Of a stretch of 64,000 nt of DNA, positions 2,881 through 63,420 are shown one piece after another. The stretch comes from an uncultured bacterium. GTDB lineage: Bacteria; Patescibacteriota; Saccharimonadia; UBA4664. Position 1 is the first letter of the stretch. Every line of letters starts with the position of its first letter. A model generated the notes under the pieces. The model searched no databases. It was not told where the DNA came from and saw only the letters and a list, made by a program, of their open reading frames with translations. Made by a program: the position numbers and the translations under genes. Location of the stretch: positions 931-64,930 of the forward strand of contig CAVRET010000002.1 of the NCBI GenBank assembly GCA_963720265.1, read 5' to 3'.

Positions 2881-2933
2881 CGCCTTTATCAAATTGTAAC
2901 TATATTATAACACAATATTCTCGGCCATGGCTC

Positions 2934-3201: not shown

Positions 3202-3486
3202 TCATCGATGCGCCAAATACGCCACATCAGCCGGTGAAGGCAGGCTTTCCATGCCTTGCCAGGTCTCAAGGGGCGTACCGTCGTCTTTCACTAACACCAC
3301 GGCCGGACGATTAAAGATCTCATAATTCTGAGCTAATTGGATGCCGCGCGGACTATCCGCATCAAGCAATTCAGCCTCGACGCGCTCTGACCCAAGCCGC
3401 TTGACCAGATCGGCCGCGGGCCGCTCGTTGTCGCTATCCCGGTTGTACAACACATAGGCCACCATTAGGCAAAGTATACCATTCAA
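3202..3486 (-). CDS. small thioredoxin/glutaredoxin-fold-like protein (no CxxC seen)
   Basis: 94-aa ORF with a beta-alpha pattern ending ...AVVLVKDDGTPLETWQG, typical of a thioredoxin-fold C-terminus. No catalytic cysteines are visible. Confidence 0.4.
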   Translation of the reverse strand: MNGILCLMVAYVLYNRDSDNERPAADLVKRLGSERVEAELLDADSPRGIQLAQNYEIFNRPAVVLVKDDGTPLETWQGMESLPSPADVAYLAHR

Positions 3487-4594: not shown

Positions 4595-6019
4595 CTATTC
4601 AACTTTACGTCGAATAAAAGCCGGCACGTCCAAGTCATCGTCAAGCGGCAAGCTTGAGCTCGCAGGCAAATCAACTGGCGCCGGCTTTGCATCCAGCTCA
4701 GGCGATAGATCGTCGACTACGCCTTCGTAAGCCGGCAAGATATCGTCAGATGAGGCCGCAGCATACACCGTTTGGCCAAATGCAGAGGCTGGCTCCTCAA
4801 CTGCTGTGTTATCGGCCGGCTCAATTGAAGCCAGCGACGGAAAGCGTCGCGGCGGGGGCGTCGACTCCGACTTGCGCACTGCGATGGGCACAACATCCGA
4901 ATCAGAAGCAGTCTGCGGCCGCTCGTTAATAAACGGCTGGCGTGGTGCCGGCATCACCGGCGGAATGTAAGGCTCCGGCTCAGGTTCCGGCTCGGGTTCG
5001 AGTGCCCGTACAGGCGCTTGGGCCTCGCGTTCCCGTACTACCTCGCGTCTCGGCATGGGCTTGCGGTCGGCATCAAAGCCGGTCGCCACCACGGTAATCT
5101 GCAGATCATCTTCCAGCGCATCGTCCAAGACCGCGCCAAAGATAATGTTAGCGTCCGGATCAACCGCATCAGTAATCGTTTTGGCCGCTTCGTCAATCTC
5201 ATGCATGGTCATATTGCGGCCGCCGGTGATATTGAGCAGCACACCGCGAGCGCCCTCAATACTTGTCTCAAGTAGCGGCGAATCGATTGCTTGGCGTGTC
5301 GCCTCCACTGCCCGGTTATCACCGCTCGCCCGGCCGATGCCCATGAGCGCCGACCCTGCATTAGTCATAATGGCCTTAACATCGGCAAAATCCAGGTTGA
5401 TCAGACCATGGATAGTAATAAGACTTGAGATGCCCTGGACACCCTGCTGCAGCACCTCGTCAACAATCCCGAAAGCATCCACCAATGAGGTCTTGCGGTC
5501 AATCATCTGCAACAGCCGGTCGTTCGGAATCGTAATCAGAGTATCAACCGTTCCTCGCAATTCCGCGATCCCAGAGTCAGCACTCCGACGCCTGCGCTCG
5601 CCCTCAAACGTAAACGGCTTGGTCACAATCGCCACTACGAGCGCTCCGGCCTCTCTGGCCGCCGCCGCTACGAGCGGAGCCGCTCCTGTTCCAGTACCTC
5701 CGCCTTCGCCCAGTGTAATAAAGACCATGTCAGAGCCCTTAACGGCTTCATAAATATCTTTCTCGCTCTCCTCAGCTGCCTTGCGGCCCACCTCCGGGTC
5801 AGCCCCGGCACCGAGCCCACGAGTTGTCTCACGCCCGATGTGAACCTTGGTCGCAGCCCTTGAGTGAAGTAATGCCTGGGCGTCGGTGTTAATCACGACA
5901 AACTCAACGCCCTGTAATTTGGCGTCGATCATCCGATTAACGGCTGAGCCGCCACCTCCGCCACAACCTATCACTTTAATCCTGGCCGAAGTGTCTACTT
6001 CGGGCAAAATTTCGGCCAT
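4595..6019 (-). CDS. ftsZ: cell division GTPase FtsZ
   Basis: GGGGGSA tubulin signature, GTGTGAAP, ...[10 protein letters not shown]-terminal [10 protein letters not shown] linker and conserved C-terminal peptide [17 protein letters not shown] at 6019 with a GGTAAGGAGG RBS (the ORF-track start at 6106 is an in-frame upstream extension). Confidence 0.95.
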
Positions 6020-6204
6020 GCACGAGTCCTCCTTACCACCAAACTCACCTTCTGTACCAAGACGAGTACAAAGCTGATGATACACCGCCCTGCAAATTAA
6101 ATGCAAATTAATTATTCACTAATATATATAAACGGCGATGAACAAAATATATGAACAAAACAAACTAGTTTAACCTTTGCAAAAGCATCCGTGAAACGGC
6201 ATTT

Positions 6205-10495: not shown

Positions 10496-10532
10496 AGTAT
10501 AGCATGCAGCAATTCACTCATGTCGCTCATGC

Positions 10533-22812: not shown

Positions 22813-24786
22813 ATGGAGCACGTGAGGCACTATCTAATTACGCCGCTGGCTTATACCGGCCGCACCTCAGCTTTTACCTACCACAGCGAGCTGGAGCTTG
22901 AACCAGGTCGCATTGTCGAAATATCAGTTGGCCGCCGCAACGTTATTGGTGTAATCGAGGCGGCAGTTGAACGTCCCGCATTCAAGACCAAGCCGATCAC
23001 CCGCGCACTTGAATTGCCGGCCATACCTTCTGAACTGCGCGAATTGGCTGGTTGGCTTAGCCGATTCTACGCAGCCAGCCCAGCCAGCGTCTGGACCACC
23101 ATGTTGCCCGCCGGGCTCGGCAAAACCCGCCGTCTGAAACCAATCCCAAGCAGCTCAGACATCACCGCATCCACGCCGAGGCTCTCACCACTGCAAAACC
23201 TGCCACCGCTTACCGAAGACCAAGCTTCTGCCCTGGCTCGCATACGTAACTCAAACCTGAGCACCGGGCTCGTCCAAGGAGTAACCGGCTCGGGCAAAAC
23301 GAGGCTCTACCTCGAGCTTGCAGCCGAGACGCTCGCGGCCGGCCGGTCATGCATCGTACTAGTACCTGAAATCATCCTCACCCCCCAGCTGGTCAGCCAA
23401 TTCGAAGCCGAGTTTGGTGCGAACGTACTAACGAGCCATTCCAAACTTACCGAAAGTCAACGTCACACGATTTGGCTAGCTGCTATGACCGCCCGTGTGG
23501 GCCACCAGCCCCGTATTATTATCGGTCCACGGTCGTGCCTATTTATGCCTGTCCACCAGCTTGGTTTGATTGTCGTCGACGAGTGCCACGAATCGAGCTA
23601 CAAGCAAGACCAACACCCAAGGTATCATGCAGTTACAGCCGCTGCCCGGCTGGCCCAGCTCACCTCCGCCAGGCTGGTACTCGGCTCAGCCACACCCGGT
23701 CTGAATGAGCTTTTTCTGGCTCGCGAACATCGCATTGAACACATTTTGCTCTCACATCGCATAAGCAAGATACCGCATCCAGAAGCCAAAATTATTGACC
23801 TGCGCAATAAAGATAATCTCAAGTCGAACAAATTTATTGCTCAAGAACTCCTGGACGCAATAGCGACAACCATGGACGCCGGTCGTCAGACGCTGCTCTA
23901 CCTCGGCCGGCGCGGCAGCGCGTCGAGTCAAGTCTGTGGCGACTGCGGCCACGTCACGACCTGCCCAAACTGCCAATTACCGCTCACCTTTCATGCCGAC
24001 CTTATGCGCCTCATTTGCCACCATTGCAACTTCCGCACCGCGAGCCCAGCCATTTGCCCTGCCTGTAACTCCGCCAACCTCAAGCTCATTGGTGCCGGGA
24101 CCAAACGAATCGAAGCCGAAGTCGGTGCACTTTTTCCGCAGGCTCGCATCGCCAGACTCGACCGCGACTCGGCTACACTTACAAACCTAAAAGCAGTGCT
24201 CAAGGGCCTAAACAACGGCGAGCTTGATATTATCATTGGTACACAAATGATCACCGGCGGCCTCGACCTGGCTGGCCTCGATACCGTTGGCGTCATCTCA
24301 GCCGATACACTCCTCCATTTGCCCGATTTCACCGCCGCCGAGCGTACGTTCCAACTGCTCAGCCAGGTTGCAGGCCGAGCCGGCCGTCGCGACCGCCCAG
24401 GCCAAGTCTTCATTCAAACCTACACGCCCGACCACCCAGCCATTGTCGCCGCTGCCCGTAACGACTTTGACTCCTTTGCGGCCACGGAGCTCGCTCAGCG
24501 CAAAGCCCTGCGCTATCCGCCGTTTGTCTACCTACTCAAGCTGACGGTTGCAGCCGCCTCCAGGCAAGCCGCTATCGCCGAAGCCACCGCCTTCGCCGAA
24601 AAACTCCGAGCTCAGCCCGGCCTCGACGTTACCGGTCCTGCCCCGGCTTTCATCGAAACCATAGGCGGGCGCTTTCACTGGCTCATCACCGCCAAATCAG
24701 TCCGCCGTCCGCCCCTCGTTACCATTGCCGAAAACCTCCCTGGCCCCCACTGGACCGCCGATCTCGACCCGGTCAACCTGTTATAA
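22813..24786 (+). CDS. priA: primosomal protein N' (replication restart helicase PriA)
   Basis: Walker A GVTGSGKT, DEAH-like VVDECHE, and zinc-binding CGDCGH...CPNCQ...CHHC...CPAC. Start ATG at 22813 (MEHVRHYLITPLAYTG...) clears the convergent gene. Confidence 0.9.
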   Translation: MEHVRHYLITPLAYTGRTSAFTYHSELELEPGRIVEISVGRRNVIGVIEAAVERPAFKTKPITRALELPAIPSELRELAGWLSRFYAASPASVWTTMLPAGLGKTRRLKPIPSSSDITASTPRLSPLQNLPPLTEDQASALARIRNSNLSTGLVQGVTGSGKTRLYLELAAETLAAGRSCIVLVPEIILTPQLVSQFEAEFGANVLTSHSKLTESQRHTIWLAAMTARVGHQPRIIIGPRSCLFMPVHQLGLIVVDECHESSYKQDQHPRYHAVTAAARLAQLTSARLVLGSATPGLNELFLAREHRIEHILLSHRISKIPHPEAKIIDLRNKDNLKSNKFIAQELLDAIATTMDAGRQTLLYLGRRGSASSQVCGDCGHVTTCPNCQLPLTFHADLMRLICHHCNFRTASPAICPACNSANLKLIGAGTKRIEAEVGALFPQARIARLDRDSATLTNLKAVLKGLNNGELDIIIGTQMITGGLDLAGLDTVGVISADTLLHLPDFTAAERTFQLLSQVAGRAGRRDRPGQVFIQTYTPDHPAIVAAARNDFDSFAATELAQRKALRYPPFVYLLKLTVAAASRQAAIAEATAFAEKLRAQPGLDVTGPAPAFIETIGGRFHWLITAKSVRRPPLVTIAENLPGPHWTADLDPVNLL

Positions 24787-25882
24787 AGCGGCGCACTATC
24801 CCCTCGTTAGCGTCCACTTCAACCATGTCTCCCTCCGAGAAAACCCTTGTGCCGTTAACAGTGCCGACAATACAGGGGATGTTCAGCTCTCGGCTAATAA
24901 TGGCGGCATGTGACAACACTCCGCCCTGGTTTGTCACAATCGCCCCAGCCTTTTTACACAGCATCGTGAGTTCAGGATTAGTGCTTTGAACGATTAAAAT
25001 GTCACCTTTGCGCATCCGTTTATCAACTGCTTGGGCCTCAGCCAGGTCGAGCATCGGCGCTATTACGACTCGTCCTCGCGCTACCCCTCGGTTGGCGACC
25101 ATACCTGACAGGCCGGCCCTTGCTGCCTCAATCTGCCCCCGCTCAAAGGCTACGAAGTTGTCGCTTACCTTGACTGCCTCGTCGTACGTAAAGTAGTGTA
25201 TCTCTCCGCCATGTTTGCGCAGCACATAAGACGATCGGCGCTGGGCAATGCTTTCGTTATCTGGCCGGACGCCTCCAAAGAGATCCTTCAGCTCATCCAA
25301 ATACAGGTAGTGGGCTGCGTCCGCTCCCGCAAAAAATGACCCATCGATGTAATCCATCAAGGAGTCAAGTACGCCGTCTTTCATAATGTAGGCATTCAGG
25401 GTTTGCCTACCCTGTGATTTCAGCTCGTTCAAGGTCTCGAGGTTGTGCTGCAAGATTGTATCCCTATGATGGTTCAAAAAATCCACGGCAGCGTCCTGAA
25501 AAACCGACTCCGTAAACCCATAGAATTTGTATAGTTGGCCCATCCCAGATATCACCTGCACAAATTCTTCCGCGGACATGTCGTCTGGCACTTCGCTGTA
25601 CCGCTGGATCAAATCCGCAGCTGTAGCCCCCATATAGCGGACAAAGTTTGAGACGTAGTCCTCAAATTCTACTTGACTACGTAATAACTCCAACCCCTGC
25701 CGGCCGAGTTTGGTAAAGGATTGCTTTGGAAGCGATAATGACCAAGCTCCATCCCGGTTAATAATTAGTGGGTCGCCGACACCAAGTGGACCGTCCAAAA
25801 AGAAAACATTGACAACGCAAGCAGCCCGGTTGAGCATCCGAAACATTGTCTGGTAATCACTCGGCTTTGGCAGGGCTTCCAT
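24773..25882 (-). CDS. PEP-utilising enzyme mobile-domain protein
   Basis: C-terminal ...GAIVTNQGGVLSHAAIISRELNIPCIVGT... is the phospho-histidine swivelling-domain motif of PEP synthase/rifampin-phosphotransferase-like enzymes. Confidence 0.6.
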   Translation of the reverse strand: MEALPKPSDYQTMFRMLNRAACVVNVFFLDGPLGVGDPLIINRDGAWSLSLPKQSFTKLGRQGLELLRSQVEFEDYVSNFVRYMGATAADLIQRYSEVPDDMSAEEFVQVISGMGQLYKFYGFTESVFQDAAVDFLNHHRDTILQHNLETLNELKSQGRQTLNAYIMKDGVLDSLMDYIDGSFFAGADAAHYLYLDELKDLFGGVRPDNESIAQRRSSYVLRKHGGEIHYFTYDEAVKVSDNFVAFERGQIEAARAGLSGMVANRGVARGRVVIAPMLDLAEAQAVDKRMRKGDILIVQSTNPELTMLCKKAGAIVTNQGGVLSHAAIISRELNIPCIVGTVNGTRVFSEGDMVEVDANEGIVRRFITG

Positions 25883-25957
25883 CTTACTGCGTCCCAGGCA
25901 TACGTAATGTACAAATGATAGCACCCCGTTTCGACAACCTGAGAGCCATCAGGTAAA

Positions 25958-27473: not shown

Positions 27474-30400
27474 TCACGGCCGACGACGCCGTTGCTGACC
27501 ACCTCCTCCGCCCTGGGAGGCTCGCCTCCTGGCACTTACCCTTCGCTTATCGAGTTCGATTTGGGCAGCGTCGGCGTACTCCAAGAGTTCTTTACCGTAA
27601 TCTAAGTTATTTTTGTGCTGATTTGGTCCCACATATGCCACAAACCCTGAGCGCGACATGTTTCTGCGTCCCTGATCACGATTCGGATCGACTTTACGAA
27701 TATAGTCGCGCCCGCCTGCTGCCGCCTCGTCGAGTATGCCGACAATTTCATTGATCGCCGCATCGATCTGATCAACGCTCGCATTGCGATCGTCCTTAAT
27801 CCTCTGGCGCACTTCAGCTATCCTCTCCTGAAAGCGCAAATTATACCAACGGTCGGCCCATTGGTTATACAGCGTTTCTGTATCCGAATCGGCATTTTGG
27901 AGAACAAGATTACTGTCGGCATTGCGCACGACAGTGTCACCACTCCGTCCGGCAATGTCGCCACCAACTAAATTGGCCTCTGCCGTACTGTGCACATCAT
28001 GCAATAGGGCGCGCAATTGCCCAATTTCCCATTGCTCGTCTTGAGGCGGCGCATCAAATTGCTGATTACGTTTGCCTCGACGCTCCCTGGTACGACCGAT
28101 AATATCTCCGATCTCAGCCGCACCTTGAACAGCCGGAGATGGCTCAGTCTCAGCCGCCGGAGGTTGGCCCTGATCTGGTGGGGGTGGAACCGGAGGCTGA
28201 GTATCTGGAGCGGCAGGTTGGCCCTGAGCTGGACCCGCAGCAGCGTTATCAGGGCCGCTAGGCGCTTGAGTCGCTGCCGGTGCCGCACTCGCCGGTTGCG
28301 CAGCTGCCGGTTGTGTCAACGCCCGCTCACGCGCATCCAAGATATCGAGCAATGCCTGATCGGCCGGATGATCAGGCCGCGCTTGCAGCTTTCTGTCAGG
28401 TAGTCCATCGCGTGCGACTTTGCCACCCTCAAAGTAATCACGACGCTCAAGATCAAGCCGAATAGTGCTAAGCTGCCGCGCATTAGTAGCTGCAGCCGCC
28501 AAGCGTTCAACCTGCTCTGGTGTTACTGGGCCGGTTTGCGAATAAGGGAATGGCCCTTGCGCTTCAGCTGCTCGCACGAGCCTCGCGATTGCCGTACTAT
28601 GCGGCCTTTCGATCGCCGGTGGTCTGGATAAGGCGCCACCCAACGTTGCGTCGAGAGCCTGAGCCTCAGTACTCAACGGTCTAGAGAGAGGGGCGTCGTC
28701 AAGTGACGCACTGAGCGCCTGGCCCGCCGCATTTAGCCGGTCGGCCAGCCCTGTTCTGCGCTGTCGCTCGTCTCCTGAAAGAACCGCACCGATTACCGGC
28801 TCAACCCGGGTGGTATCATCAGGGCCGGCGACAACCATGCGCTCCCGAATCGCGGAACTGCGCACCCGGGCCAGTGCGATCCTGAGTTCTGATCGGCGAC
28901 CCCGGGCGTCGGCTTGCGACATTGCCGCCAAACCATCAGCATCGTTTAGGACAGCGTCCGCGCGGTCAAATAATCTACGAAGCGTCTCGTCGACTCCTTC
29001 AGCGTTGCGCGGCTCATCGATCTCACGGTTAGTCTCGGCGATCGCCTGCTCATTGTGACGCCGCTCCGCCTCAACTGCCGCTGCCAGGTTCTCTTTACGC
29101 TGCCTACGCTCCGCCCTCAGATCAGCTGCCGCTTGCCTTACCTGCTTCCTAGCCTCGGCCGTGGCTTGCTCTTGCTGGACTGCAGCATCTGCCACTTCCT
29201 GTATTTGCTGTTGCGCGGCAATTTGTGCGTTGTACTCTCCCTGCATAGCCGTAGTCGCACGAAGTAAGCGCTCGCCCGCTTCGGTTTGACCCTGAAAACC
29301 GCGCGGACTACCAAGGAACTCCAATTCATCCGCTATGACTTCATACTGCTGGCGCAGAGTTTCTGGATCTAGCTGACCATGCGTCCGCTGCTCACGATAA
29401 TGCTCTGCAAGGCCTTCGGCGCGAACAGCCAATTGCCGCCAGCCGTCAATGATCCGCATATCCGCCACCCGCTCCGGCGACACGAGCCGCGGACCGCCAA
29501 GCGACCGCAACCCTGCCTGCGCCACTCTAGCCGGTTCTTGCTCTTCATCGACCTCCCGCGCCAACCGCTGCGTCCGTTCATGATGGCCCTCTTCCTCAAG
29601 CCCTGCTGCCACGCGCTGCTGCCGCGCAACCTCGGCTCGGCGGGCCAGATCAATGGCATGGTCCTGCAAGTCTTCCGCACCGGCGGCTATCCTCGCTTCC
29701 CGCCAGCGGGCCACATTTGACACCCCCACGCCCATGTTCTCGCCCTGTGGGTCATGCGTCCAAGTCGACTGCTCAAGGAACGTCTGTAGCTGATCACTTA
29801 TTGCAACTTCAACCCCGCCTCGAACCTGACGCCGTTCCGTCAAAACCCCCCCGGGAATCGCTACCGCTTGAAAGCGTACCAACTCCCCGACGGTCCCCTC
29901 CCGACGGTTCCTTCGGGCATTGGCCCGCCGGATCGTGACGATGGCCACATTGGGGTCATCGGTTGCATAGACCGACCGCTCAACAGCGCTCCTACGATCG
30001 CTCACGGTTCGCGCGCCACCAATAGTCGCCCGCCATAGCAAGCTCCGGTTTTCACCCCCCGGCCGCACCATATGCCTTCGCCGGTCAATTTCATCCAATG
30101 TGTCATCTTCCTCCAAATCCACACCCAGCTCATTTGCTAGTGCTGACAAGAGCGCTTCGCGCTCCTGATCGGTACCAATACCAATGTAATCAACCGACTG
30201 CAAACTCTCAGGCAGATTGCCCCTGCGGTCCGGTTGCACCAGTTCCTGCGCTCGTTGAACTTCATCTAAGAGGTCGAGAATCTGCATGCCCAGAAGCGGA
30301 TTAGGCCCATATTCCGGCCACTGCCGGGGTCGGTATCCTTCTGGCTCACCCTGACCCCCTGGCCCGCCCGGACCACCGCCACGCGGACCACCCGACCCGT

Positions 30401-32108
30401 CGGCCGACAATGGCTCCGGCGGCTCAGGTGCCGCTGACGCTCGCTGAGCGAAGTTCTCAAACAGCCGCGCTGTGCGCTCCCGGCCGTCAGCCCGTGCCTC
30501 CTCGGCCATCTGTTGCCATTGCGCCGCCGTGCCTCGCCCCTCGGGCCAGGCCTCCGGTGGCACGGCCTGTGCTTCAGCCCGCGTCGCAAAATCTTCATAT
30601 GCTCCCGCCCCCGCCTCGTCACCCTGCGCCCGCCGTTCGGCCGCCAGCTGCTCCCATTGTTCCTGGGTACCTTGAAGAATGGGAACCGGCTCACGAGGCA
30701 CCCGCGACATATCAATACCACGCCCGCGCCGCCCTTCGCGCCGCTCATCATCGTCCAGGTCAGCCTCATAGGCGGCTGCCAGATCACGAAATTCTGCCGC
30801 CTCTTGGCGCAGCCTCGCAGCCTCGGCCGGATTGCCCTCCCGCCCGACTCTTTCTGCTTCTCCGCTAGCCTCATTAGCTCGCTGTCTGGCACGTTCAAGC
30901 AACCGGTCTATTCTCGCGTCTTCTGGTTCATTGTTTAAACGCCCCCAACGTTCGGGAATCCTCGGCGGTTCAGGGCTCCTGTTGTCATCAGCTGCCTCTT
31001 GCAGACGGACGCGTTCAGCATCGAGCCAAGCATCCGCCGCTCGATTCCTCGGCGCTTCGTTCAGGCGTTCGTTCATGGCCTCACCCGCAGCTCTGCGAGC
31101 TTCTTGAAGGTTTCCCGCTACCTCACGCGCCCTTCCGGCCGCTTCACCTGCCATATTGGCGGCACCACGCACGCTACCGCCCACTCCGTGACCAACGCCA
31201 CGAGCCGCGTCCCGCACACCTCCCCCAATTCTTGCCCGTAACCCGGATTGTGCCTGCTCCTCAGAAGCGGCAGGTGGGAGCAGTGCACTCGGGTGTGACG
31301 CTGCCTCAAGCCGTGCCCGCGCAGCCTGTTCGCGTAATTCACGCTGCTCTCGCTCATTCAGACGCCTTGCTGCCTCCCAAGCTGCTTCTGGATCGGGCGC
31401 AGCCGCAATTTCTCGTGCCCGGGCTGCACGCTCGCGGGCATCTCGTTCCGCAATTGCAGGATCTTCTCCGGCTGCCGCCGACCAATAGGTTTCTCTCATA
31501 ACTCGACCCGGACCATCAACAGGCTGCCCGCGCCTGGCTTCAAGCCACTCAGGCGGCCGATCCGGATCCTGGGCACCCCTATCCCTAGCTTGCTGCTGGT
31601 AATATTCGGCCCGCTCGCGAAATCCGCCACGCCGGGCTTGCGCGGCAAACCGCGCAAACATCTCCGCCTGACTCTCGCCAGATTGCTGCAACCACTGGTT
31701 AATATCCCCGGCCATAAAATCAGCGAACACCGCATCCTCATGTCGATCGCGCTCACGGTATTCCTGGGCAAGCCGGGAAATCCATTCTTGGGCCCCCTCG
31801 TCAGGCTGTCGCTGTTCCCAATCTGCTAACTGTCTGCCATCTTGTCTCGGCTGGTCCATCCGTTCAACCGCCGGCATCCAAGGTGGAACATCTAGAGCAT
31901 CGTGGTCTTCAAAATCCCAAACATCATCCGGACCCGAACGTGGCAATGGCATGCCCGGCTGCCACGGTTCAGGATCCCGCCGCTGTTCACGCCGAGGTAC
32001 GCGGCGCCAGCGTGGGTCAATCTCTCCCGGGCCGCCGGCGCCTTCCTCTCCACCAGATCCCGGTCCACCCGGACCTTCTCCTCCTCCTGGTCTTCTCGGC
32101 GGCACCAA
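27474..32108 (-). CDS. giant (up to 1544 aa) low-complexity repetitive protein of unknown function
   Basis: Single uninterrupted minus-strand frame of 4.6 kb. The other five frames in this span are short. Extreme R/E/A/D/Q/G bias, Gly/Pro-rich tracts, ~45-aa internal repeats, and no TM or signal peptide. The annotated start (TTG at 32108) lies inside the rbfA terminator U-tract; the first ATG is at 31952. Confidence 0.7.
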   Translation of the reverse strand: MVPPRRPGGGEGPGGPGSGGEEGAGGPGEIDPRWRRVPRREQRRDPEPWQPGMPLPRSGPDDVWDFEDHDALDVPPWMPAVERMDQPRQDGRQLADWEQRQPDEGAQEWISRLAQEYRERDRHEDAVFADFMAGDINQWLQQSGESQAEMFARFAAQARRGGFRERAEYYQQQARDRGAQDPDRPPEWLEARRGQPVDGPGRVMRETYWSAAAGEDPAIAERDARERAARAREIAAAPDPEAAWEAARRLNEREQRELREQAARARLEAASHPSALLPPAASEEQAQSGLRARIGGGVRDAARGVGHGVGGSVRGAANMAGEAAGRAREVAGNLQEARRAAGEAMNERLNEAPRNRAADAWLDAERVRLQEAADDNRSPEPPRIPERWGRLNNEPEDARIDRLLERARQRANEASGEAERVGREGNPAEAARLRQEAAEFRDLAAAYEADLDDDERREGRRGRGIDMSRVPREPVPILQGTQEQWEQLAAERRAQGDEAGAGAYEDFATRAEAQAVPPEAWPEGRGTAAQWQQMAEEARADGRERTARLFENFAQRASAAPEPPEPLSADGSGGPRGGGPGGPGGQGEPEGYRPRQWPEYGPNPLLGMQILDLLDEVQRAQELVQPDRRGNLPESLQSVDYIGIGTDQEREALLSALANELGVDLEEDDTLDEIDRRRHMVRPGGENRSLLWRATIGGARTVSDRRSAVERSVYATDDPNVAIVTIRRANARRNRREGTVGELVRFQAVAIPGGVLTERRQVRGGVEVAISDQLQTFLEQSTWTHDPQGENMGVGVSNVARWREARIAAGAEDLQDHAIDLARRAEVARQQRVAAGLEEEGHHERTQRLAREVDEEQEPARVAQAGLRSLGGPRLVSPERVADMRIIDGWRQLAVRAEGLAEHYREQRTHGQLDPETLRQQYEVIADELEFLGSPRGFQGQTEAGERLLRATTAMQGEYNAQIAAQQQIQEVADAAVQQEQATAEARKQVRQAAADLRAERRQRKENLAAAVEAERRHNEQAIAETNREIDEPRNAEGVDETLRRLFDRADAVLNDADGLAAMSQADARGRRSELRIALARVRSSAIRERMVVAGPDDTTRVEPVIGAVLSGDERQRRTGLADRLNAAGQALSASLDDAPLSRPLSTEAQALDATLGGALSRPPAIERPHSTAIARLVRAAEAQGPFPYSQTGPVTPEQVERLAAAATNARQLSTIRLDLERRDYFEGGKVARDGLPDRKLQARPDHPADQALLDILDARERALTQPAAAQPASAAPAATQAPSGPDNAAAGPAQGQPAAPDTQPPVPPPPDQGQPPAAETEPSPAVQGAAEIGDIIGRTRERRGKRNQQFDAPPQDEQWEIGQLRALLHDVHSTAEANLVGGDIAGRSGDTVVRNADSNLVLQNADSDTETLYNQWADRWYNLRFQERIAEVRQRIKDDRNASVDQIDAAINEIVGILDEAAAGGRDYIRKVDPNRDQGRRNMSRSGFVAYVGPNQHKNNLDYGKELLEYADAAQIELDKRRVSARRRASQGGGGGQQRRRRP

Positions 32109-32133
32109 AAACTCCGGTTACTTCTAACCGGAG
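32106..32133 (-). terminator. intrinsic terminator after rbfA
   Basis: 9-bp stem CTCCGGTTA/TAACCGGAG with a 4-nt loop. On the minus strand it is followed by UUUUUUGG. Confidence 0.6.
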
Positions 32134-32164
32134 TATAGCACAAGCAGCATATCTGGCGCTTCGG

Positions 32165-40366: not shown

Positions 40367-40434
40367 ATGATAGATTATACCAAGACCAAAAAAGACCCTT
40401 AAAGGGTCTCCTCTGGCGCATTCAAGCAGCGGAT

Positions 40435-41437: not shown

Positions 41438-41442
41438 ATAAT

Positions 41443-41555
41443 CCGGCACCGTGCTACTTTCCCCTTTCGAGTATCATCGCCGCAGCGGGTCTTAACGGTG
41501 GTGTTCGGGATGGGAACCAGTGTATCCCCCGCGCCATAAGCACCGGGTTCGCGGG
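41443..41555 (-). rRNA. rrf: 5S ribosomal RNA
   Basis: Reverse complement reads ...GGUGCUUAUGGCGCGGGGGAUACACUGGUUCCCAUCCCGAACACCACCGUUAAGACCCGCUGCGGCGAUGAUACUCGAAAGGGGAAAGUAGCACGGUGCCGG, with a 5S helix I closure and loop C CCGAAC. Ends are approximate. Confidence 0.8.
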
Positions 41556-41977
41556 TCGCACACTATCCCGTAGGATATTTGGTGGACCAGCGAACTCGGC
41601 ACTCATGTGAGTGTCAGATTTTGTGAATGGGTGCTTCCTTGCGCGTATGCGCCGGTAGCCACAAACTGCTAGTCAAACCTTGCAAAAAAGTCAATCGACC
41701 GATTAGTACACCTCGGCTAAACACATTACTGTGCGTACACCTAGTGCCTATCAACCTGGTAGTCTTCCAGGGGTCTGATTGGGAAATCTAATCTTGAGGT
41801 AGGTTTCGCGCTTATATGCTTTCAGCGCTTATCCTGTCCGAACATAGCTACCCGACGATGCCCTTGGCAGAACAATCGGTACACCAGAGGTTCGTTCACT
41901 CCGGTCCTCTCGTACTAGGAGTCACTCCTCTCAAATTTCCTTACGCCCACACCAGATAGGGACCGAACTGTTTCACA

Positions 41978-42034
<57 letters not shown>

Positions 42035-42058
42035 GGTGCTTCCCCCCCAGGATGCGAC

Positions 42059-42502
42059 GAGCCGACATCGCTGTCGATTCCACAATTACTTGTGGCCCAG
42101 ACTATATCTTATCCCTGCTCTCCAGACTTAGGCTGATAGGCCATATCTATGAGTTGAGTCTTGCAGGGCTCGGCGTGTTAGCCCACTTTACGTGGACTCT
42201 CATCTTTCGAATCAGTCGTTACGGGGTCATCAGTCAATTTATACTTGAAGCAAGGTAACGCATATGGAGCAATCTGCTGCCAACTTCGAACAAAGCGTTC
42301 TTGCGATTGCCTTGTTTGCGTAGCGTACCATCGCCTAGCAGACTGCCTATTAGGACTTCCTGCTGAATTGACGTTAGACTTCCCACGGTATTGTCCTTGT
42401 TTGTATCATACCGAACATTCACCGTACAAACAATAGGATTTCACCGTTATAAGCCGAATTTTTGGTACAGGATTACTCCTGTAGCACCCCGATATTGATT
42501 CT
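42059..42502 (-). mobile_element. group I-like intron in 23S at the site homologous to E. coli 2499/2500 (GGCACCU|CGAUGUC), carrying a degenerate LAGLIDADG ORF
   Basis: Exon homology breaks after GAGCCGACATCG (plus coordinate 42058) and resumes at AGGTGCCAAAC (42503). The inserted RNA starts after an exon U and ends in G, consistent with group I splice sites. Confidence 0.65.
42234..42422 (-). pseudogene. LAGLIDADG homing endonuclease remnant (62 aa)
   Basis: Translation ...QEVLIGSLLGDGTLRKQGNRKNALFEV... contains a LAGLIDADG-type motif. It is too short to be an intact enzyme. Confidence 0.5.
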
Positions 42503-43183
42503 AGGTGCCAAACAGCGCCGTCTATGTGAACTATTGGGCGCTATAAGCCTGTTATCCCCAGGGTAACTTTTGTCCGTTGAGCGCTGCAGATTCCACATTC
42601 TAGATTGCAGCGGATCACTAACTCCTACTTTCGTACCTGCTCGGCTTGTAAGCCTCACAGTCAAGCTGGCTTCTGCGTTTGCACTATCGATACGATTTCC
42701 ATCCGTACCTAGCCAACCTTTGAACGCCTCCGTTACTCTTTAGGAGGCAACCGCCCCAGTTAAACTACCCACCAGACACTGTTCCAGTGCCGGAATTCGC
42801 GTACAAGGTAATCTAACAAGACAAGTCGCATGCATATGCGTGAGTTAGGAAAAAGTTTCCATTTGAACTTGTTCTACTTGTCTTGTCAGCATTGTCCGCA
42901 AATTGCGGCACTGGTTAGGACAAAGTTACAGCCAGGGTGGTATTTCACATTTCGGCTCCGCCAGAGCTAACGCTCTAACTTCACAGCCTCCCACCTATTC
43001 TACACAGGCTATAACTCGGCCCAATGCCAAGTTGTAGTAAAGCTCCATGGGGTCTTTCCGTCTTGGTGCGGGTAAACGGCATCTTTACCGCTATTGCAAT
43101 TTCACCGAGTCCCTCGTTGAGACAGTGCCCATATCGTTACGCCATTCGTGCGGGACGGAACTTACCCGCCAAGGAATTTCGCT

Positions 43184-43970
43184 TTATGTCAAGTTATTGG
43201 TATCACCAACCCGTCTGGAGATCCTTGGTTCTCGCTGACGGCTGCATGTCGCCATGCAGTACGGACTCTATCTTTACCGCTGTCGCGGCATCCGGCGTAT
43301 TAGCCTCTGAGGATTCTTATCAGATCCTGCCTGGATTTTTGCCTATTCATTGTTTGCGTAATCTCAGCTATTTCGATCAATCCCTCTGGGGTTTTATGCA
43401 CTCCAGAGTTGATTAACGAAACGCAGTGCGCAAATTTTTGAAAATCATGTTGCTTATGCGTTCGCAATTAATACAAGCTGAAGAAGGGTATGATCCTTTC
43501 GATCAAGTCTTCACGCCTTTGTACCACGTATCGATACATTGCTTCTGTATGGTTATCGTAACGTCGATTAATCACGACGGTACCCACTCCAAAGAAATGT
43601 TGCAATCGATGCAAGCACTCGATGCTCTTGGCACCTTGCGCAACTGCGAATTCATGGGCAACTTGGTAGCCAGTTCTGTATCCACGATGAGTTTTAGTAG
43701 TCAGTTGCCTGACAAACCCAATTGAGAAGCATCCTTCTCCGTCTACAAAACCAATAACCCAGCCAAGCTCGATAAGCCTTTCCTGCTGATTGTCCGCACC
43801 TGTCGCATTGTCAGTCATGTTGGCATTATACCGAACAAAGTCCGTATAATAAACATTGCTAGCGCAGGATTCTCGGGGTTTCCAGCATATAGCCAGATTT
43901 TCTCTCAAAACCTCTATGGCAAGAGGAAAACGAGAGGTGGTCTTACACCACACTAAGGCAGCTTGTGTTC
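43184..43970 (-). mobile_element. intron-like intervening sequence in 23S at the site homologous to E. coli ~1917 (GGUCCUAAGGU|AGCGAAAUUCC), encoding a LAGLIDADG endonuclease
   Basis: The exon sequence CAAGGAATTTCGCT ends at 43183 and ACCTTAGGAC resumes at 43971. The joined exons reproduce the universally conserved GGTCCTAAGGTAGCGAAATTCC. Confidence 0.65.
43468..43953 (-). CDS. LAGLIDADG homing endonuclease (intron-encoded)
   Basis: ...RLIELGWVIGFVDGEGCFSIGF... is a canonical single-motif LAGLIDADG. Possible start at the internal Met at 43818 (MTDNATG...). Confidence 0.8.
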   Translation of the reverse strand: MWCKTTSRFPLAIEVLRENLAICWKPRESCASNVYYTDFVRYNANMTDNATGADNQQERLIELGWVIGFVDGEGCFSIGFVRQLTTKTHRGYRTGYQVAHEFAVAQGAKSIECLHRLQHFFGVGTVVINRRYDNHTEAMYRYVVQRREDLIERIIPFFSLY

Positions 43971-46507
43971 ACCTTAGGACTCTTATAGTTAGAGCCGCCG
44001 TTTACTGGGGCTTCATTTCAGAGCTTGCACCCCTCCACTTAACCTTCCAGCACCGGGCAGGCGTCAGTCCGTATACATCCTCTTTCGAGTTAGCACAGAC
44101 CTGTGTTTTTGATAAACAGTCGCATGGGCTCTTTTGCTGCGGCCCTCCGAAGAGGGCAGACCTTATCCCGAAGTTACGGTCGCTGTATTGCCGAGTTCCT
44201 TAACGAGGGTTCTCTCGTACACCTTGGTCTACTCGACCCGAGCACCTGAGTCGGTTTGCGGTACGGGCGGCTATGCCTATTAACCCCAAAGCTTTTCTTG
44301 TCGGCTTGGCTCGCGTGAATCAACCCTTGCGGGCCTTTCATTCGCGTCTCACCCGGATTGCTCCGGACTACCTGCTTAGACGGATATAGCCAAAAATCCG
44401 CTCACGCTACCACGCCGCGTCATCTGGGGGAACAACATCGCCGGTACGGGAATATCAACCCGTTGTCCATCGCCTACGCTACTCGCCTCGGCTTAGGCCC
44501 GACTAACCCTGGGACGATAATCGTTGCCCAGGAAACCTTGCTCTTACGGTGGCAGGGATTCTCACCCTGCTTAAAGTTACTTATTCCAGCATTCTCACTT
44601 CCCCGCGCTCCACCAGACCTTCCGGTCTGACTTCACCGCCCGAGGAACGCTCCTCTACCACGCATGCGCTTGCGCGCACACATCCGCATCTTCGGCGCTA
44701 CGCTTGAGCCCCGTTATATTTTCCGCGCCGAATCACAATTGACCAGTGAGCTGTTACGCACTCTTTAAATGCATGGCTGCTTCTAAGCCCACATCCTGGT
44801 TGTTTATGCGTTCCGACATCGTTTCCCACTTAGCGTAGACTTGGGGGCCTTAGATGGCGATCTGGGCTGTTTCCCTTTTGAGCGACGAGCTTAGCCCCGC
44901 CGTTCTGACTGCCACAGTAATCTCTCCCGGTATTCGCAGTTTGCCAAGGATCAGTATCCTTGCGGACCATTACCTAAACAGAGCTCTACCCCCAGGAGGT
45001 AGTATGTGACGCTAGCCCTAAAGCTATTTCGAGGAGAACCAGCTATCTCCGAGTTCGATTGGAATTTCTCCGCTAACCACAGGTCATCCAAGCATTTTGC
45101 AACATGTCCTGGTTCGGTCCTCCACGCCGTTTTACCGACGCTTCAACCTGCCCATGGTTAGGTCACCCGGTTTCGGGTCTAATCCTGCGTACTATGTCGC
45201 CTTATTAAGCCTCGCTTTCACTACGGCTCCGTCAACTGACTTAACCTAACGCACGCAAAATTAACTCGCTGGATCGTTCTACAAAAAGCACGCCGTCACC
45301 CCATTGCTGAGGCTCCGACTCATTGTAGGCACATGATTTCAGGTTCTATTTCACTCCCCTTCCGGGGTTCTTTTCGCCTTTCCCTCACGGTACTTGTTCG
45401 CTATCGATCGTAAAGTATATTTAGCCTTGGAAGGTGGTCCTTCCAGATTCAGTCAGGCTCCAGTCTATCTCCCGACCTACTCGAGAATAGAGATATAAGG
45501 GCTGAAGTTTTTCGTGTACGGGGCTTTCACCCTCTTTGGCGCAAGATTCCGCCTGCTTCCACTAATCTTCAACTTTCTTACCTTACCGGCGCGTGACAGC
45601 GCAAACCGTCGCAATAAAGATCGCTTTCTTTGATTACTCTCGCAAAGCGCTCTTTATTGGTCATCTCTATCTCACAACCCCTCATTAACATTCGCCTGTC
45701 AGCTTATTCGTGTGCGAACACACGAAAGTCAATAAGGTTTTGGCTCTTCCCATTTCGCTCGCCGCTACTAAGGGAATTGAGGTTTCTCTCTCTTCCTGTG
45801 GCTACTTAGATGTTTCAGTTCACCACGTACCCTCCACACATCCTATTTTATTCAGATATGGGTAACCGCGTATAACCACGGCTGGGTTGCCCCATTCGGA
45901 AATCCCCGGGTCAAAGCTTGATTGACAGCTCACCGAGGCTTATCGCAGCCTTCTACGTCCTTCGTCGGTACTTTACGTCAAGGCATTCATCATGTGCCCT
46001 TAAGTAACTTTCTTACTTTGTTTGACTAGCAGTTTATAACTGCCGGTCGATCGATCTCCTCCACCTCGGCAGATGGATTCGATTCGATGAAATTGTTTGT
46101 AAATCTCACGCCTTGCGGCGCTTGATTTTACCCATTCATATTCACTTCTCAAAAAACAACTCCGCGAACCGGATTGATTCTGCGGAGCTCACATAATAAG
46201 AGACAACTATTTGCGCTTAGGCGATTTCTCCGCTTACCGCTAGTTGTCTACACATATAATGCGAGCCCTCGAAGTAACTCTATTAAGATATCAGATCAAG
46301 CTTGCTCGGTCAATACCCTGAGCGCCTATTTTGCAAAGATGCCGGTATGTAATTGCGAGAAACCCGCTCCAACATCATTGCCGGAACGGGCCATACAAAT
46401 TCCTGATCACCCGGATATCTCCAGGCTCTCCACCCGCCTCGGGCGCTGCCGAGGCGGGTCATCTGGTTGGTTGTGGACGGGCGGCTTGCCAAAAAAGACG
46501 CGACGTA

Positions 46508-49829: not shown

Positions 49830-50126
49830 ATGCCGACGAAGAGTGCCACCAAAATCTACATAAAATCCGGGTTTGCCATACCCCTCGGCCTACTTTTAGT
49901 AGCCTTAGTCTTGTCTCTCGTCGGTCTAGCAATGTACAGCTCGATGAATGCAAAGCATTCTGTGCTCGTTTTTCAGCCAGAAACTAGCATGCCCACGGGC
50001 ACTATCTCAATTGTCGGCCTCGATGGGAAGGTACGGCACTCACTTACAAGTCCCCCCAGCTCCGCTTCGTATGATCCGACCACATATTCGGTAGAAGGTA
50101 GTGCCCTTGTGCAGGGAAGTGTCTGA
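49830..50126 (+). CDS. small membrane/secreted protein, apparently truncated by IS insertion
   Basis: Signal/TM segment GFAIPLGLLLVALVLSLVGLAMY. The stop codon TGA is supplied by the first bases of the IS terminal repeat (cTGAacc). Confidence 0.45.
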   Translation: MPTKSATKIYIKSGFAIPLGLLLVALVLSLVGLAMYSSMNAKHSVLVFQPETSMPTGTISIVGLDGKVRHSLTSPPSSASYDPTTYSVEGSALVQGSV

Positions 50127-51287
50127 ACCACCCCACACTTCCTTGAGCTGCAACTAAAAAGACGACACACTGTTTTCTGTCCACTTCAAAACAAACAGGA
50201 AAACAAATATGTCGTCACCCAATATTGTACGGGGTATCCGTACTCGTATACAAAAGCAATTAATGCCCAGTGTGCCGAGCCGTTGGCGGACGCAGCTGTC
50301 GTTTGGCCTGCAGGCATACGGACTTAGAGCTTTCCAGAGCGCCAGTGGCAATGCCCGCATGGTGGTTGCCAACCCCCACACCGGTCTGCGTAAGGCAGAG
50401 CGCATGTTCCAAAACACCGCCTTTACCGACCAGCTCGGAGAGGTTTTTGACCAGCTGGCGCTCGTCAAACCACGCAGCTATGTAAATGTAGATCACTCGG
50501 ACATGCATGGGCTCACAGCCTTGGTAGGTGCCGTACAAACCCGGAAGGGCAGATCCCTCCCTTGTATGGTTGAGACCACTTACGCTCACCATATTCCTGC
50601 CCACGAGAATGCCGCTCCGCACTGGAAGAAACTCAGAGCTGCCATGCAAGCGGCCCGCCGGCAGCAGTCTTTTACCGAGCATACCGTCACTAGCCTCCAA
50701 GCCATGGCTGACCGGCTCGGCTTCTGGCCCCGACTGGTCTTTGACCGCGGTTTTGGCAACCGGTCCATTGTGACGCATCTAGCAGCAGCAAACGCTACCT
50801 TCTATGTCCGCCTCAAAGCTGGCCGCCACGTTGCATGTGACAGCGAAGTAACCGAGGTCAGCACTCTAACTGACCGGGATACCACGGTCCAGATATATGG
50901 ACTGACTCTCCGGGTTATCCGCTCGCCCAAAAGCCGGCGTGCCAAAGAGTCCTGGTACATACTCACTAACGATTTCAGAAGCAGTCGAACTAAGATTATC
51001 CGAATTTACTACCACCGATTCGAGATTGAAGAGACCTTTCGGGACATTAAACACATCTTTGAGTACAAACGCACCAGGTTAACCAAGCCGCATAACCTAA
51101 AGCTCATCTTGTGGCTGGTCAGCCTTGGCATTGCACTACTTTATCTGGAAACGAAGCCCACTAAACAAACCGTGACAAGCGCCAACCCCAAGAAGCAAAC
51201 GTCCTGGCTCCGCCAGGCCTACGAGCAACTGCAGCAGGCGTTAACCGAGCAGGTCTGGGGCGGGGTGTGAAGTGTGGGGTGGTTCAG
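50123..51287 (+). mobile_element. IS4-family-like insertion sequence, copy 1 (1165 bp)
   Basis: Terminal inverted repeats CTGAACCACCCCACACTTC (50123-50141) / GAAGTGTGGGGTGGTTCAG (51269-51287). Carries one transposase gene. No flanking direct repeat was found for this copy. Confidence 0.85.
50209..51270 (+). CDS. tnp: DDE transposase (IS4-like)
   Basis: 353 aa, ...LVFDRGFGN... and ...YYHRFEIEETFRDIKH... (the Y-(2)-R-(3)-E-(6)-K block typical of IS4-group transposases). Identical copy at 56670-57731. Confidence 0.85.
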   Translation: MSSPNIVRGIRTRIQKQLMPSVPSRWRTQLSFGLQAYGLRAFQSASGNARMVVANPHTGLRKAERMFQNTAFTDQLGEVFDQLALVKPRSYVNVDHSDMHGLTALVGAVQTRKGRSLPCMVETTYAHHIPAHENAAPHWKKLRAAMQAARRQQSFTEHTVTSLQAMADRLGFWPRLVFDRGFGNRSIVTHLAAANATFYVRLKAGRHVACDSEVTEVSTLTDRDTTVQIYGLTLRVIRSPKSRRAKESWYILTNDFRSSRTKIIRIYYHRFEIEETFRDIKHIFEYKRTRLTKPHNLKLILWLVSLGIALLYLETKPTKQTVTSANPKKQTSWLRQAYEQLQQALTEQVWGGV

Positions 51288-60365: not shown

Positions 60366-60397
60366 GGCCCCGCGGGGGTCTTACGTTTGTTATACTT

Positions 60398-61954: not shown

Positions 61955-63420
<1,466 letters not shown>

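Follow-up and report, generated by a model that had tools for sequence, protein, structure and literature searches.

The polar hub proteins HubP, FimV and TspA of Vibrio, Pseudomonas and Neisseria are very large, strongly acidic and fast-evolving multivalent scaffolds that contain imperfect repeats of about 45 residues and low-complexity linkers. Disordered hub regions such as the C-terminal half of RNase E, PopZ and the FtsZ linker are length-variable, poorly conserved and composition-driven, with short conserved islands and a constraint on their properties instead of their sequence. In myosins VI, VII and X, extended spacers are formed by ER/K single alpha-helices, and in VirD4-dependent type IV secretion a positively charged C-terminal tail is a known type of signal. 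We compared with these systems a giant gene that is located on the minus strand of the window, by which we mean the whole 64-kb stretch of Saccharibacteria DNA analyzed here; all features described below lie on the same strand. Like HubP and FimV, its product is large (1543 aa), acidic (net charge -49) and equipped with degenerate repeats (four copies of about 35-45 aa), but it shares no sequence similarity with them and possesses none of their N-terminal signal sequence, periplasmic LysM domain, TM helix and C-terminal FimV motif. It also resembles the disordered hub regions in its variable length, poor conservation, composition-driven sequence and short conserved islands. However, the regions of RNase E, PopZ and FtsZ extend from a conserved domain with catalytic or polymerising activity, whereas the giant protein has no such domain and the gene as a whole is lineage-restricted. 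The FtsZ encoded by the same genome carries a 158-aa linker rich in P, A, E and D.

The open reading frame at 27474-32108 is a genuine gene. None of its 1544 codons is a stop, whereas the remaining five frames carry 27, 27, 30, 41 and 126 stops, and the chance that a frame stays open over this length by luck is P ~ e^-27. Its synonymous codon usage correlates with that of 21 neighbouring genes at r=0.86, compared to 0.60-0.74 for its other frames; when the neighbours themselves are treated in the same way, 15 of the 21 give 0.81-0.94 and the remainder 0.31-0.77, which places the giant gene inside their main range. Its GC content at the three codon positions is 0.76/0.52/0.55, and GC3 is thus lower than that of the neighbours (0.57-0.73), indicating that the high GC stems from the amino-acid content. 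The low GC3, the low-complexity sequence and the lack of a homologue at database-wide significance would fit a non-functional or decaying frame, i.e. a spurious high-GC frame or a gene drifting without selection. The sequence-only reading had named relatives that lack the frame, or carry it broken by stops, as the outcome speaking against a gene. This test fails since the relatives hold large open frames in the same position between rbfA and fmt, kept at every related locus that was read despite near-total turnover of the sequence. Together with the open frame itself, the conserved promoter and Shine-Dalgarno sequence and the detectable conserved cores, this largely refutes the notion of a decaying frame, which we regard as extremely improbable.

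The coding sequence extends over 27474..32105 (stop codon 27474-27476) and encodes 1543 aa from GTG 32105 or 1544 aa from TTG 32108. The public protein entry P0001 uses GTG 32105 (1543 aa), and the identical protein is encoded in a second, independent Logan assembly. From the letters of the window it had been proposed that translation really starts at ATG 31952. This is contradicted by a Shine-Dalgarno sequence (GGAG, 32112..32115) 6 nt before GTG 32105, and by the relatives, which repeat this order of Shine-Dalgarno sequence, spacer (6-8 nt) and start codon. Moreover, five of the six first-after-rbfA frames with a called start possess a G/P-rich N-terminus of the 'GPE.G.GGP' type, and the 52 residues dropped by the ATG 31952 start are therefore a shared feature. 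Judged by these comparisons, the upstream GTG 32105 is the real start and not ATG 31952.

The region in front of the gene is densely packed. An extended -10 promoter element (TGCTATACT, 32132..32140) is situated at the distance of about 30-40 nt from the start codon that is typical of the family, and its TGnTAnAnT form is invariant in 9/9 aligned loci. Within the window, the motif TGNTATAMT occurs 7 times compared to 1.55 expected occurrences. We infer a transcription start at about 32125. A hairpin followed by a T-run (32107..32134), with 10 pairs between 32134 and 32111, is the putative intrinsic terminator of rpsA-ylxR-infB-rbfA. The 5' arm of this hairpin starts at the fourth base of the -10 hexamer, its 3' arm contains the Shine-Dalgarno sequence and TTG 32108 lies inside its T-run. 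The sequence-only reading had anticipated a terminator hairpin between rbfA and the giant gene, a TTG formed by its U-tract and a promoter belonging to the gene itself, and all three are recovered here. Compensatory pair changes in the loci L088 and L150 show that the hairpin is conserved, the T-run being absent from L150. A promoter-overlapping hairpin that bears the Shine-Dalgarno sequence is found in five of the nine loci and is absent from four. Taken from these signals, the giant gene is an independent transcription unit of its own. The hairpin and T-run would end the rpsA-ylxR-infB-rbfA transcript, and the extended -10 element overlapping the 5' arm would start a new mRNA within that arm. 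The Shine-Dalgarno sequence would then be buried in the hairpin of a read-through RNA and accessible in the mRNA made from the gene's promoter; both the start of transcription and the hairpin's role are predictions. The interval between the stop codon and fmt contains no terminator-like structure (z=-0.25).

The gene is preceded by rpsA, ylxR (66 aa), infB (593 aa) and rbfA, as the earlier reading had described, and is followed by the convergent fmt and def. Since this position between rpsA-ylxR-infB-rbfA and fmt-def is kept in relatives, we considered an RNA- or ribosome-associated disordered protein that would form condensates or act like a chaperone in translation initiation or ribosome maturation, with RNA contacted via the RGG/Arg-rich tail. 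The polyampholyte, low-complexity composition is consistent with such a function, and so are the RG/RGG-rich tails of several members (e.g. L087b, L153 and the window protein). However, the gene is transcribed separately, behind a terminator, and adjacency to translation genes carries little weight because gene order across the entire region is conserved in these small genomes. The protein is also net acidic and a known RNA-binding domain was not found in it. A likeness to the N-terminal extensions of IF2, previously suggested, did not hold up, as Pfam IF2_N matched infB and the giant protein remained without any Pfam match. We thus consider an RNA-associated function to be distinctly unlikely.

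The closer relatives were collected via fmt; a contig search with IF2 gave, among the matches listed, best matches with only 56% identity. They share the order RelA-RecJ-...-SecF-SecD-PRT-PriA-def-fmt, followed on the opposite strand by X, rbfA, infB and rpsA, where X denotes the slot between rbfA on the same strand and the convergent fmt that the giant gene occupies in the window. In related high-GC Saccharimonadia this slot is filled by one or two Pfam-less open reading frames in every readable locus, encoding proteins of 955, 918, 1184+1306, 793+922, 548+695, 737+727, 759, 582, 456 and at least 1403 aa, with totals per slot from 456 to about 2490 aa. All of them are rich in A, R, E, G, P and D, and copy number, fission or fusion and length differ among the loci. 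In the related contigs (clade GC 56-61%) fmt is 63-80% identical to that of the window, and where fmt retains 71-80% identity the giant protein can barely be aligned. The available pairs of loci are either identical, as are L083 and L084 (1 mismatch in 2868 nt), or saturated. Composition-controlled alignment links the window protein to its relatives through a beta-rich core (residues ~700-775), the C-terminal domain and an N-terminal repeat of the form W...F..FA.RA. As far as synteny and these alignments reach, the giant gene is a member of a lineage-restricted, very fast-evolving modular family in the rbfA-fmt slot, and this family is confined to the slot of one high-GC branch of Saccharibacteria. 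Proteins of 560-655 aa that contain TM helices and follow infB in distant Saccharimonadales (L003, L005, L006-8) were rejected as homologues on the basis of blastp (E>1) and the absence of the extended -10 element.

The composition of the protein is extreme (A 15.3, R 13.3, E 10.0, G 9.0, Q 7.3, D 7.2 and K 0.6%, with a background of K 3.9 and R 7.4%), in line with the bias towards Arg, Glu, Ala, Asp, Gln and Gly noted before, and 31% of the residues are charged. As also stated earlier, neither a signal peptide nor a TM helix is present: Kyte-Doolittle hydropathy averaged over 19 residues reaches 1.05 at most, the N-terminus is rich in G, P, R and E rather than hydrophobic, and a cell-wall anchor or adhesin repeats were likewise not detected. 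A Gly/Pro-rich tract at residues 6-28 (32025..32093) has similar counterparts at the N-termini of L083, L086, L087a and L088a. It is followed by the repeat copies R1 and R2 of the form W...LA.E...F..F(A) at residues ~105-168 (~105-137 and ~134-168; 31605..31796) and by the tandem copies R3 and R4, recognised by repeat analysis, at residues 481-526 and 527-570 (30399..30668). A second Gly/Pro-rich tract, defined by composition, covers residues ~569-592 (30333..30404). The repeats and both tracts had been seen in the sequence-only reading, which counted three copies instead of four and put the second tract in front of the tandem repeats rather than behind them. R3 and R4 are only about 54% identical at the DNA level and their duplication is therefore old; the repeats do not derive from a recent DNA duplication, and no paralogue is found elsewhere in the window. 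An HMM of R1-R4 matches residues 60-86 of L083 with a score that none of 200 shuffles reached. A linear motif, 'P-x-W', noticed on visual inspection was discarded, as it is not enriched (29 observed, 30.9 expected). The expectation that later regions are less biased is met by the hydrophobic fraction, which is 0.26-0.32 at residues 600-800 and 0.24-0.30 at residues 1350-1500, compared to mostly 0.10-0.18 in the N-terminal 600 residues.

Searches with full-length and sub-region queries against an index of 5.8 billion proteins returned the giant protein itself or nothing, and phmmer with residues 345-1544 against 1.84 billion representative proteins gave only the self-match. A tblastn search of a phage collection remained without a match, and neither an RNase E/G catalytic S1 or 5'-sensor nor a DNase I-like domain was found with Pfam and NCBIfam. 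The absence of a recognisable domain, as claimed from the sequence, is thus substantiated by Pfam, NCBIfam, PHROGs and PADLOC (nothing significant at E<=1) and by the PDB, which was searched with the sequence and with profiles of the beta-rich core, the module described below and a long C-terminal alignment. The best PDB matches were EapH1/MAP (E=0.43) and a chimera with the single alpha-helix of myosin-7 (E=1), which is the sole PDB match of any sort within the predicted helix.

The less biased region at residues 600-800 (29709..30311) contains the conserved beta-rich core at residues 702-774 (29787-30005), which was delimited by a family HMM and Smith-Waterman alignment. In the family it takes the form (Y/F)...P..(P)NVA.V..R....G.L(V/L)S..V....G, and the window protein is recognised as carrying it. 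Smith-Waterman alignment of residues 590-870 with L087a yields z=12.5, and residues 702-774 obtain 8.1 bits from an HMM in whose construction the window protein had no part, a score that none of 500 shuffles reached; the HMM segments were chosen by eye in two relatives, which introduces a mild selection bias into this score. On the alignments, the core is the sole element common widely across the family. It is also where descent from a well-known family (adhesins, helicases, RNase E-type scaffolds or FimV/HubP proteins), obscured by divergence and missed in the searches, might show itself. The core gave sub-threshold matches to SLBB in one relative (E=0.01-0.06; when the members of alignment A1 were compared with Pfam one by one, only SLBB was found, E=0.01, in a single member) and to EapH1/MAP with a profile of three relatives. 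SLBB and EapH1/MAP domains are both beta-grasp folds. Against such a descent stand the empty results from Pfam, NCBIfam, PHROGs, PADLOC and the PDB, the latter also with family profiles, and the lack of catalytic motifs, TM helices and LysM domains, and hence we consider it very improbable.

Single-sequence AlphaFold2 models of residues 590-1290 and 1340-1544 have a mean pLDDT of 50 and 47, respectively, and no fold can be assigned because both models are poor. The region that stands out from this low confidence is a helix of 89 residues, rich in Q, E, A and R, at residues 943-1031 (29016..29282; pLDDT mostly 74-87), a candidate single alpha-helix or coiled-coil spacer. Its length and E/R/Q/A-rich composition are reminiscent of the ER/K helices of the myosins. 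In contrast to these, lysine is almost absent and replaced by arginine, and the PDB similarity mentioned above is not significant; the predicted helix could equally be a coiled coil. Modules of about 50 aa with the pattern 'helix-G(L/F/V)(V/L)-hairpin-helix' dominate L086, L087b, L088b, L152a and L153. In the window protein the corresponding helix-G-wing-helix HMM scores at best 1.3 bits (residues 1079-1128), a value matched by 83 of 500 shuffles; the module is visible there by eye only.

Further towards the C-terminus, a region with the motif 'RPDH..D..LL..L..R' (residues 1234-1276, 28281..28409) directly precedes a Pro/Ala/Gln-rich linker recognised by composition (residues ~1270-1335, 28104..28301). 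In blastp the motif region is 39% identical over 44 aa to a fragment from L082 (E=0.003), and composition-controlled alignment of residues 1201-1320 gives z=7.0. The C-terminal domain (residues ~1340-1518, 27555..28091) is defined by similarity to the C-terminal fragments of relatives: residues 1231-1544 align with those of the closest relatives by Smith-Waterman at z=6.7 (L082) and 5.3 (L085), residues 18-92 of L085 match residues 1429-1501, and residues 1381-1500 reach z=5.8 with L085.

The protein ends in an Arg/Gly-rich basic tail (27477..27551) with a net charge of +9 in the last 25 residues, the 99.9th percentile of its own 25-residue windows. In 10 of the 13 complete family proteins the tail likewise reaches at least the 90th percentile, and among complete proteins and fragments four are without a basic tail. 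This positively charged, unstructured tail on an otherwise acidic protein resembles the Arg-rich C-terminal signals of VirB/D4-type substrates. We considered an effector that is translocated and interacts with the host, or a factor exposed at the surface; its export would do without a Sec signal and could proceed, e.g., by a monoderm-type T4SS. Acting on or in the host bacterium would explain an arms-race-like divergence, and the contrast between the well-conserved fmt and its barely alignable neighbour, the changes in copy number, fission or fusion and length, and the depletion of lysine to 0.6% all agree with this. Type IV secretion systems are widespread in Patescibacteria and their substrates are unknown (bioRxiv 10.1101/2025.01.22.634366). 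However, the protein carries no effector domain, signal peptide, TM helix or cell-wall anchor, the lysine content varies from 0.6 to 4.9% within the family, so that depletion is not conserved, and four complete proteins or fragments do without the tail. The neighbourhood is stably syntenic and purely housekeeping or translational: the annotated ORFs of the window are housekeeping genes with no secretion-system gene among them, and no T4SS gene was found among the Pfam-scanned ORFs of these 64 kb, in a genome of 1.1 Mb. On balance an effector or surface factor seems unlikely to us. A more elaborate form is more doubtful still, in which the rbfA-fmt slot would be a hot-spot for a hypervariable, Sec-independent exported protein delivered by this soil clade onto or into its actinobacterial host, with the Arg-rich tail as type IV secretion signal. 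Its lysine-poor, disordered, modular body would be the outcome of an arms race against the defences of the host, the depletion of lysine possibly being an avoidance of host pupylation.

The reading that we prefer is a cytoplasmic scaffold. From the N- to the C-terminus, the product consists of a G/P-rich N-terminus, the W...F..FA.RA repeats, a second G/P tract, the beta-rich core, the predicted helix, the P/A/Q linker, the C-terminal domain and the basic Arg/Gly-rich tail, and is probably a largely disordered or helical, net-acidic polyampholyte. The charged residues, the G/P tracts and the predicted 89-residue helix suggest an elongated shape. Lacking both a signal peptide and a TM helix, the protein would remain in the cytoplasm, where charged helices and disordered linkers would act as spacers between small folded modules. 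Its basic tail may serve as an anchor on a polyanion (nucleic acid or an acidic membrane), and an aromatic/Arg tail (GGFWYRWFRGRL) present in some relatives would have the same effect at the membrane. The extreme divergence in length and sequence could then be due to linkers under relaxed constraint. Fast divergence, fission or fusion and variation in length nevertheless fit an arms-race protein (effector or surface factor) equally well. A genuine family gene with its own promoter, encoding a cytoplasmic scaffold, is our overall explanation, which we put forward tentatively and place somewhat short of probable. A little more tentative is the specific function of an extended, multivalent scaffold or spacer in the cytoplasm with a basic anchoring tail, a best guess drawn from composition and architecture.

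At present the protein is another lineage-restricted low-complexity protein of the kind that genomes of candidate phyla hold in numbers. The gene nevertheless takes up about 0.4% of a reduced genome of 1.1 Mb, and since the slot is filled in every relative read despite the turnover of its sequence, the cell apparently bears its cost and retains it. The overlap of terminator, promoter and Shine-Dalgarno hairpin represents a compact and testable regulatory design. If exported, the slot proteins would be the first candidate cargo or substrate family for the T4SS of Patescibacteria; if a scaffold, the giant protein would be a rare bacterial protein conserved by architecture and not by sequence. 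The example shows that 'no homologue in 1.8 billion proteins' can conceal a syntenic family, here one that is recoverable only via its neighbouring genes and composition-controlled alignment.

The minus-strand ORF at 27474–32108, located between rbfA and fmt, is a real gene. As the sequence-only reading had observed, it runs for 1544 codons without a stop; the other five frames over the same DNA contain 27–126 stops each. Its synonymous codon usage correlates with that of 21 neighbouring genes at r = 0.86, compared to 0.60–0.74 for the wrong frames and 0.81–0.94 for 15 of the 21 neighbours themselves. Since its GC3 (0.55) is below that of the neighbours, the raised GC content of the region reflects Ala, Arg, Gly and Pro codons and not mutational drift. 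The protein is present as a public entry (P0001, 1543 aa, start GTG 32105, 1,108,292-bp contig), and an identical protein is encoded in an independent Logan assembly. A spurious ORF is essentially excluded.

The gene is set among housekeeping genes. It is preceded on its strand by rpsA, a 66-aa YlxR-type ORF, a short infB (593 aa) and rbfA; downstream, fmt and def are convergent to it, and a PEP-utiliser gene and priA lie beyond them, with SecDF, RecJ, RelA/SpoT, HisRS, FtsZ and FtsA farther out. The PEP-utiliser gene (24773–25924, minus strand) encodes 383 aa with a PEP-utilising mobile domain and separates priA from def, which directly follows priA at most related loci; other small inserts occur there in L086, L087 and L152. 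Relatives of its IF2 and fmt place the genome in the Saccharibacteria (Saccharimonadia). Contigs of closer relatives were found via fmt (63–80% identical, GC 56–61%), and the block RelA-RecJ-...-SecF-SecD-PRT-PriA-def-fmt> <X <rbfA <infB <rpsA is kept across them, X denoting the large ORF or ORFs in the rbfA-fmt slot. In every relative contig that extends beyond fmt, this slot is filled by one or two large ORFs that match no Pfam family: 955 aa in L083/84, 918 in L086, 1184 + 1306 in L087, 793 + 922 in L088, 548 + 695 in L150, 737 + 727 in L152, 759 in L091, 582 in L092, at least 1030 in L153 and at least 1403 in its sister contig, and 456 aa in a related record without DNA. In L082 and L085, the two nearest relatives, the slot protein is represented by C-terminal fragments. 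All slot proteins are rich in A/R/E/G/P/D, with K at 0.6–4.9%. Those of L087 (14912–18466), L088 (13701–16082) and L083 (10921–13788; all minus strand) contain His/Gly tracts, for example GHGGGGHGGGHHGEG and GGHGHGHGGGHIG; none occurs in the window protein. More distant Saccharimonadales (L003, L005–L008; GC 46–51%) have a charged low-complexity ORF of 560–655 aa directly after infB, with no large gap for rbfA between the two. These ORFs (L003 11783–13462, L005 11837–13612, L006 5950–7908) contain a hydrophobic TM-like stretch, but no similarity between them and the window protein could be detected, and the extended -10 described below is missing; on the longer contigs L003 and L005 a minus-strand ORF of ~300 aa comes next, at the place of fmt in the window.

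Searches of the window protein against Pfam, NCBIfam, PHROGs, PADLOC and PDB sequences gave no significant match, and phage genomes gave none. In an index of 5.8 billion proteins the sole hit, if any, was the protein itself, and an exhaustive phmmer search of residues 345–1544 against 1.84 billion representatives likewise found no other sequence. Plain blastp was likewise insignificant between most slot-protein pairs; only those of L092, L150 (second ORF) and L152 (first ORF) match one another (E = 1e-14 to 1e-28). Homology was judged against composition-matched shuffles. Residues 590–870 align to residues 380–600 of the first L087 ORF with a Smith-Waterman score of 106 (shuffles 36 ± 5.6; z = 12.5). 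When five relatives, but not the window sequence, were used to build an HMM of the beta-rich core, it hit residues 702–774 (8.1 bits, i-E 1.5e-4; equalled by 0 of 500 shuffles), the aligned pattern being ...DPNVAIV..RR....G.LV....V..PGG.... The C-terminal 314 residues match the L082 and L085 fragments (z = 6.7 and 5.3), including an 'RPDH..D..LL..L..R' motif before the linker, and an HMM of the window protein's four repeats finds L083 residues 60–86, the equivalent N-terminal position (equalled by 0 of 200 shuffles). Hence, the window protein belongs, as a long member encoded by a single ORF, to a modular family restricted to one clade. Because it is only ~25% identical or unalignable where fmt is 71–80% identical, database-wide E-values miss this family. 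A module of ~50 aa, 'helix-G(L/F/V)(V/L)-hairpin-helix', makes up much of the proteins of L086, L087 (second ORF), L088 (second ORF), L152 (first ORF) and L153; in the window protein it cannot be detected with statistical support.

The sequence-only reading had also proposed that the gene has its own promoter, and this is supported by an extended -10, TGnTAnAnT, that is invariant between rbfA and X at nine loci (in the window TGCTATACT, 32140–32132, minus strand). The motif TGNTATAMT occurs at 7 sites in the window against 1.55 expected, a count reached by 0 of 100 shuffles; other sites are 40374–40382, 10496–10504, 3473–3481 and 2904–2912 (minus) and 60388–60396 (plus). The first of these ends only 7 nt before ATG 40366 of a tRNA-editing-domain gene, a spacing that suggests a leaderless mRNA. 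One TGGTATAAT match inside the giant ORF (27840–27848, minus; codons W-Y-N, residues ~1421–1423) is probably a coding coincidence and less likely an internal promoter. A hairpin overlaps this promoter at five loci: it starts from the fourth base of the -10 hexamer, and its stem shows compensatory pair changes (GC GC to AT AT in L150, at several positions in L088). GGAG lies in the 3' arm, 6–8 nt before the start codon, and in four of these loci a T-run comes next. Hairpin and T-run would act as an intrinsic terminator for RNA coming from rbfA and also bury the Shine-Dalgarno, which would be free in RNA begun near 32125, ~7 nt past the -10, without the 5' arm. G/P-rich 'GPE.G.GGP'-type N-termini are shared by five of the six ORFs that come first after rbfA and have a called start. 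These and the Shine-Dalgarno spacing support GTG 32105 as the start rather than ATG 31952, which had been favoured earlier. The overlap of promoter, terminator and Shine-Dalgarno would be a neat feature of the slot family.

The composition of the window protein (A 15.3, R 13.3, E 10.0, G 9.0, Q 7.3, D 7.2, K 0.6%; 31% charged residues, net charge -49) is as biased as first described; the lack of a TM helix, the P/A/Q linker and the two stretches of weaker bias (residues 600–800 and 1350–1500) were likewise recovered. Two G/P tracts do exist, the second of them located after the tandem repeat pair and not before it. The repeat W...LA.E...F..FA.RA is present in four copies (residues ~105–137, ~134–168, 481–526 and 527–570); the last two, in tandem, share only ~54% DNA identity, which marks their duplication as old. 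Long low-complexity linkers are not unique to this ORF in the genome, since FtsZ (4595–6106, minus; 503 aa) has a P/A/E/D-rich C-terminal linker of 158 aa including (EP)5. Single-sequence AlphaFold2 predictions had mean pLDDT values of 50 (residues 590–1290) and 47 (1340–1544), the sole confident element being a long helix at 943–1031 (74–87 over most of it). The sole fold hints are sub-threshold beta-grasp matches (SLBB, E = 0.01–0.06, in one relative; EapH1/MAP, E = 0.43, with a profile of three relatives).

Elsewhere in the window, the 23S rRNA match (41682–46014, minus) spans 4333 nt against a 2925-nt model, so that ~1.4 kb is insertion; an ORF inside the match (43468–43953, minus) encodes a homing endonuclease of the LAGLIDADG type (Pfam E = 2.7e-13), and this points to an intron or intervening sequence. 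The 16S rRNA (61956–63418, minus) is unlinked from 23S-5S (41441–46014, minus), with ~16 kb of tRNAs, insertion-sequence copies and protein genes in between. Two inverted, 100% identical 1166-bp insertion-sequence copies (~50122–51287, plus; ~56653–57818, minus), encoding a 353-aa DDE_Tnp_1 transposase, flank ~5.4 kb in which a UvrD-like helicase and a SpoU methylase are encoded, and the whole may be a composite transposon.

The window protein appears to consist of small modules separated by polyampholyte helices and G/P linkers. Its C-terminal tail is basic, with a charge of +9 over the final 25 residues (99.9th percentile among its windows), as are those of 10 of the 13 complete slot proteins (at or above the 90th percentile); L092 and the second L150 ORF have aromatic/Arg tails such as GGFWYRWFRGRL. 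No export signal was found in it. We tentatively favour an elongated cytoplasmic scaffold or spacer whose tail would anchor it to nucleic acid or membrane. The positively charged tail and the extreme sequence turnover of slot proteins are also what a translocated effector might display, and T4SS are widespread in Patescibacteria, their substrates not being known (bioRxiv 10.1101/2025.01.22.634366); we consider this role unlikely. An association with RNA or the ribosome, the two grounds for which are the gene position and RGG-like tails, appears slightly less probable still. Whether scaffold or not, the window protein adds to the uncharacterised low-complexity proteins of candidate-phyla genomes, and the slot proteins together are a newly delineated, clade-restricted and hyper-divergent family.
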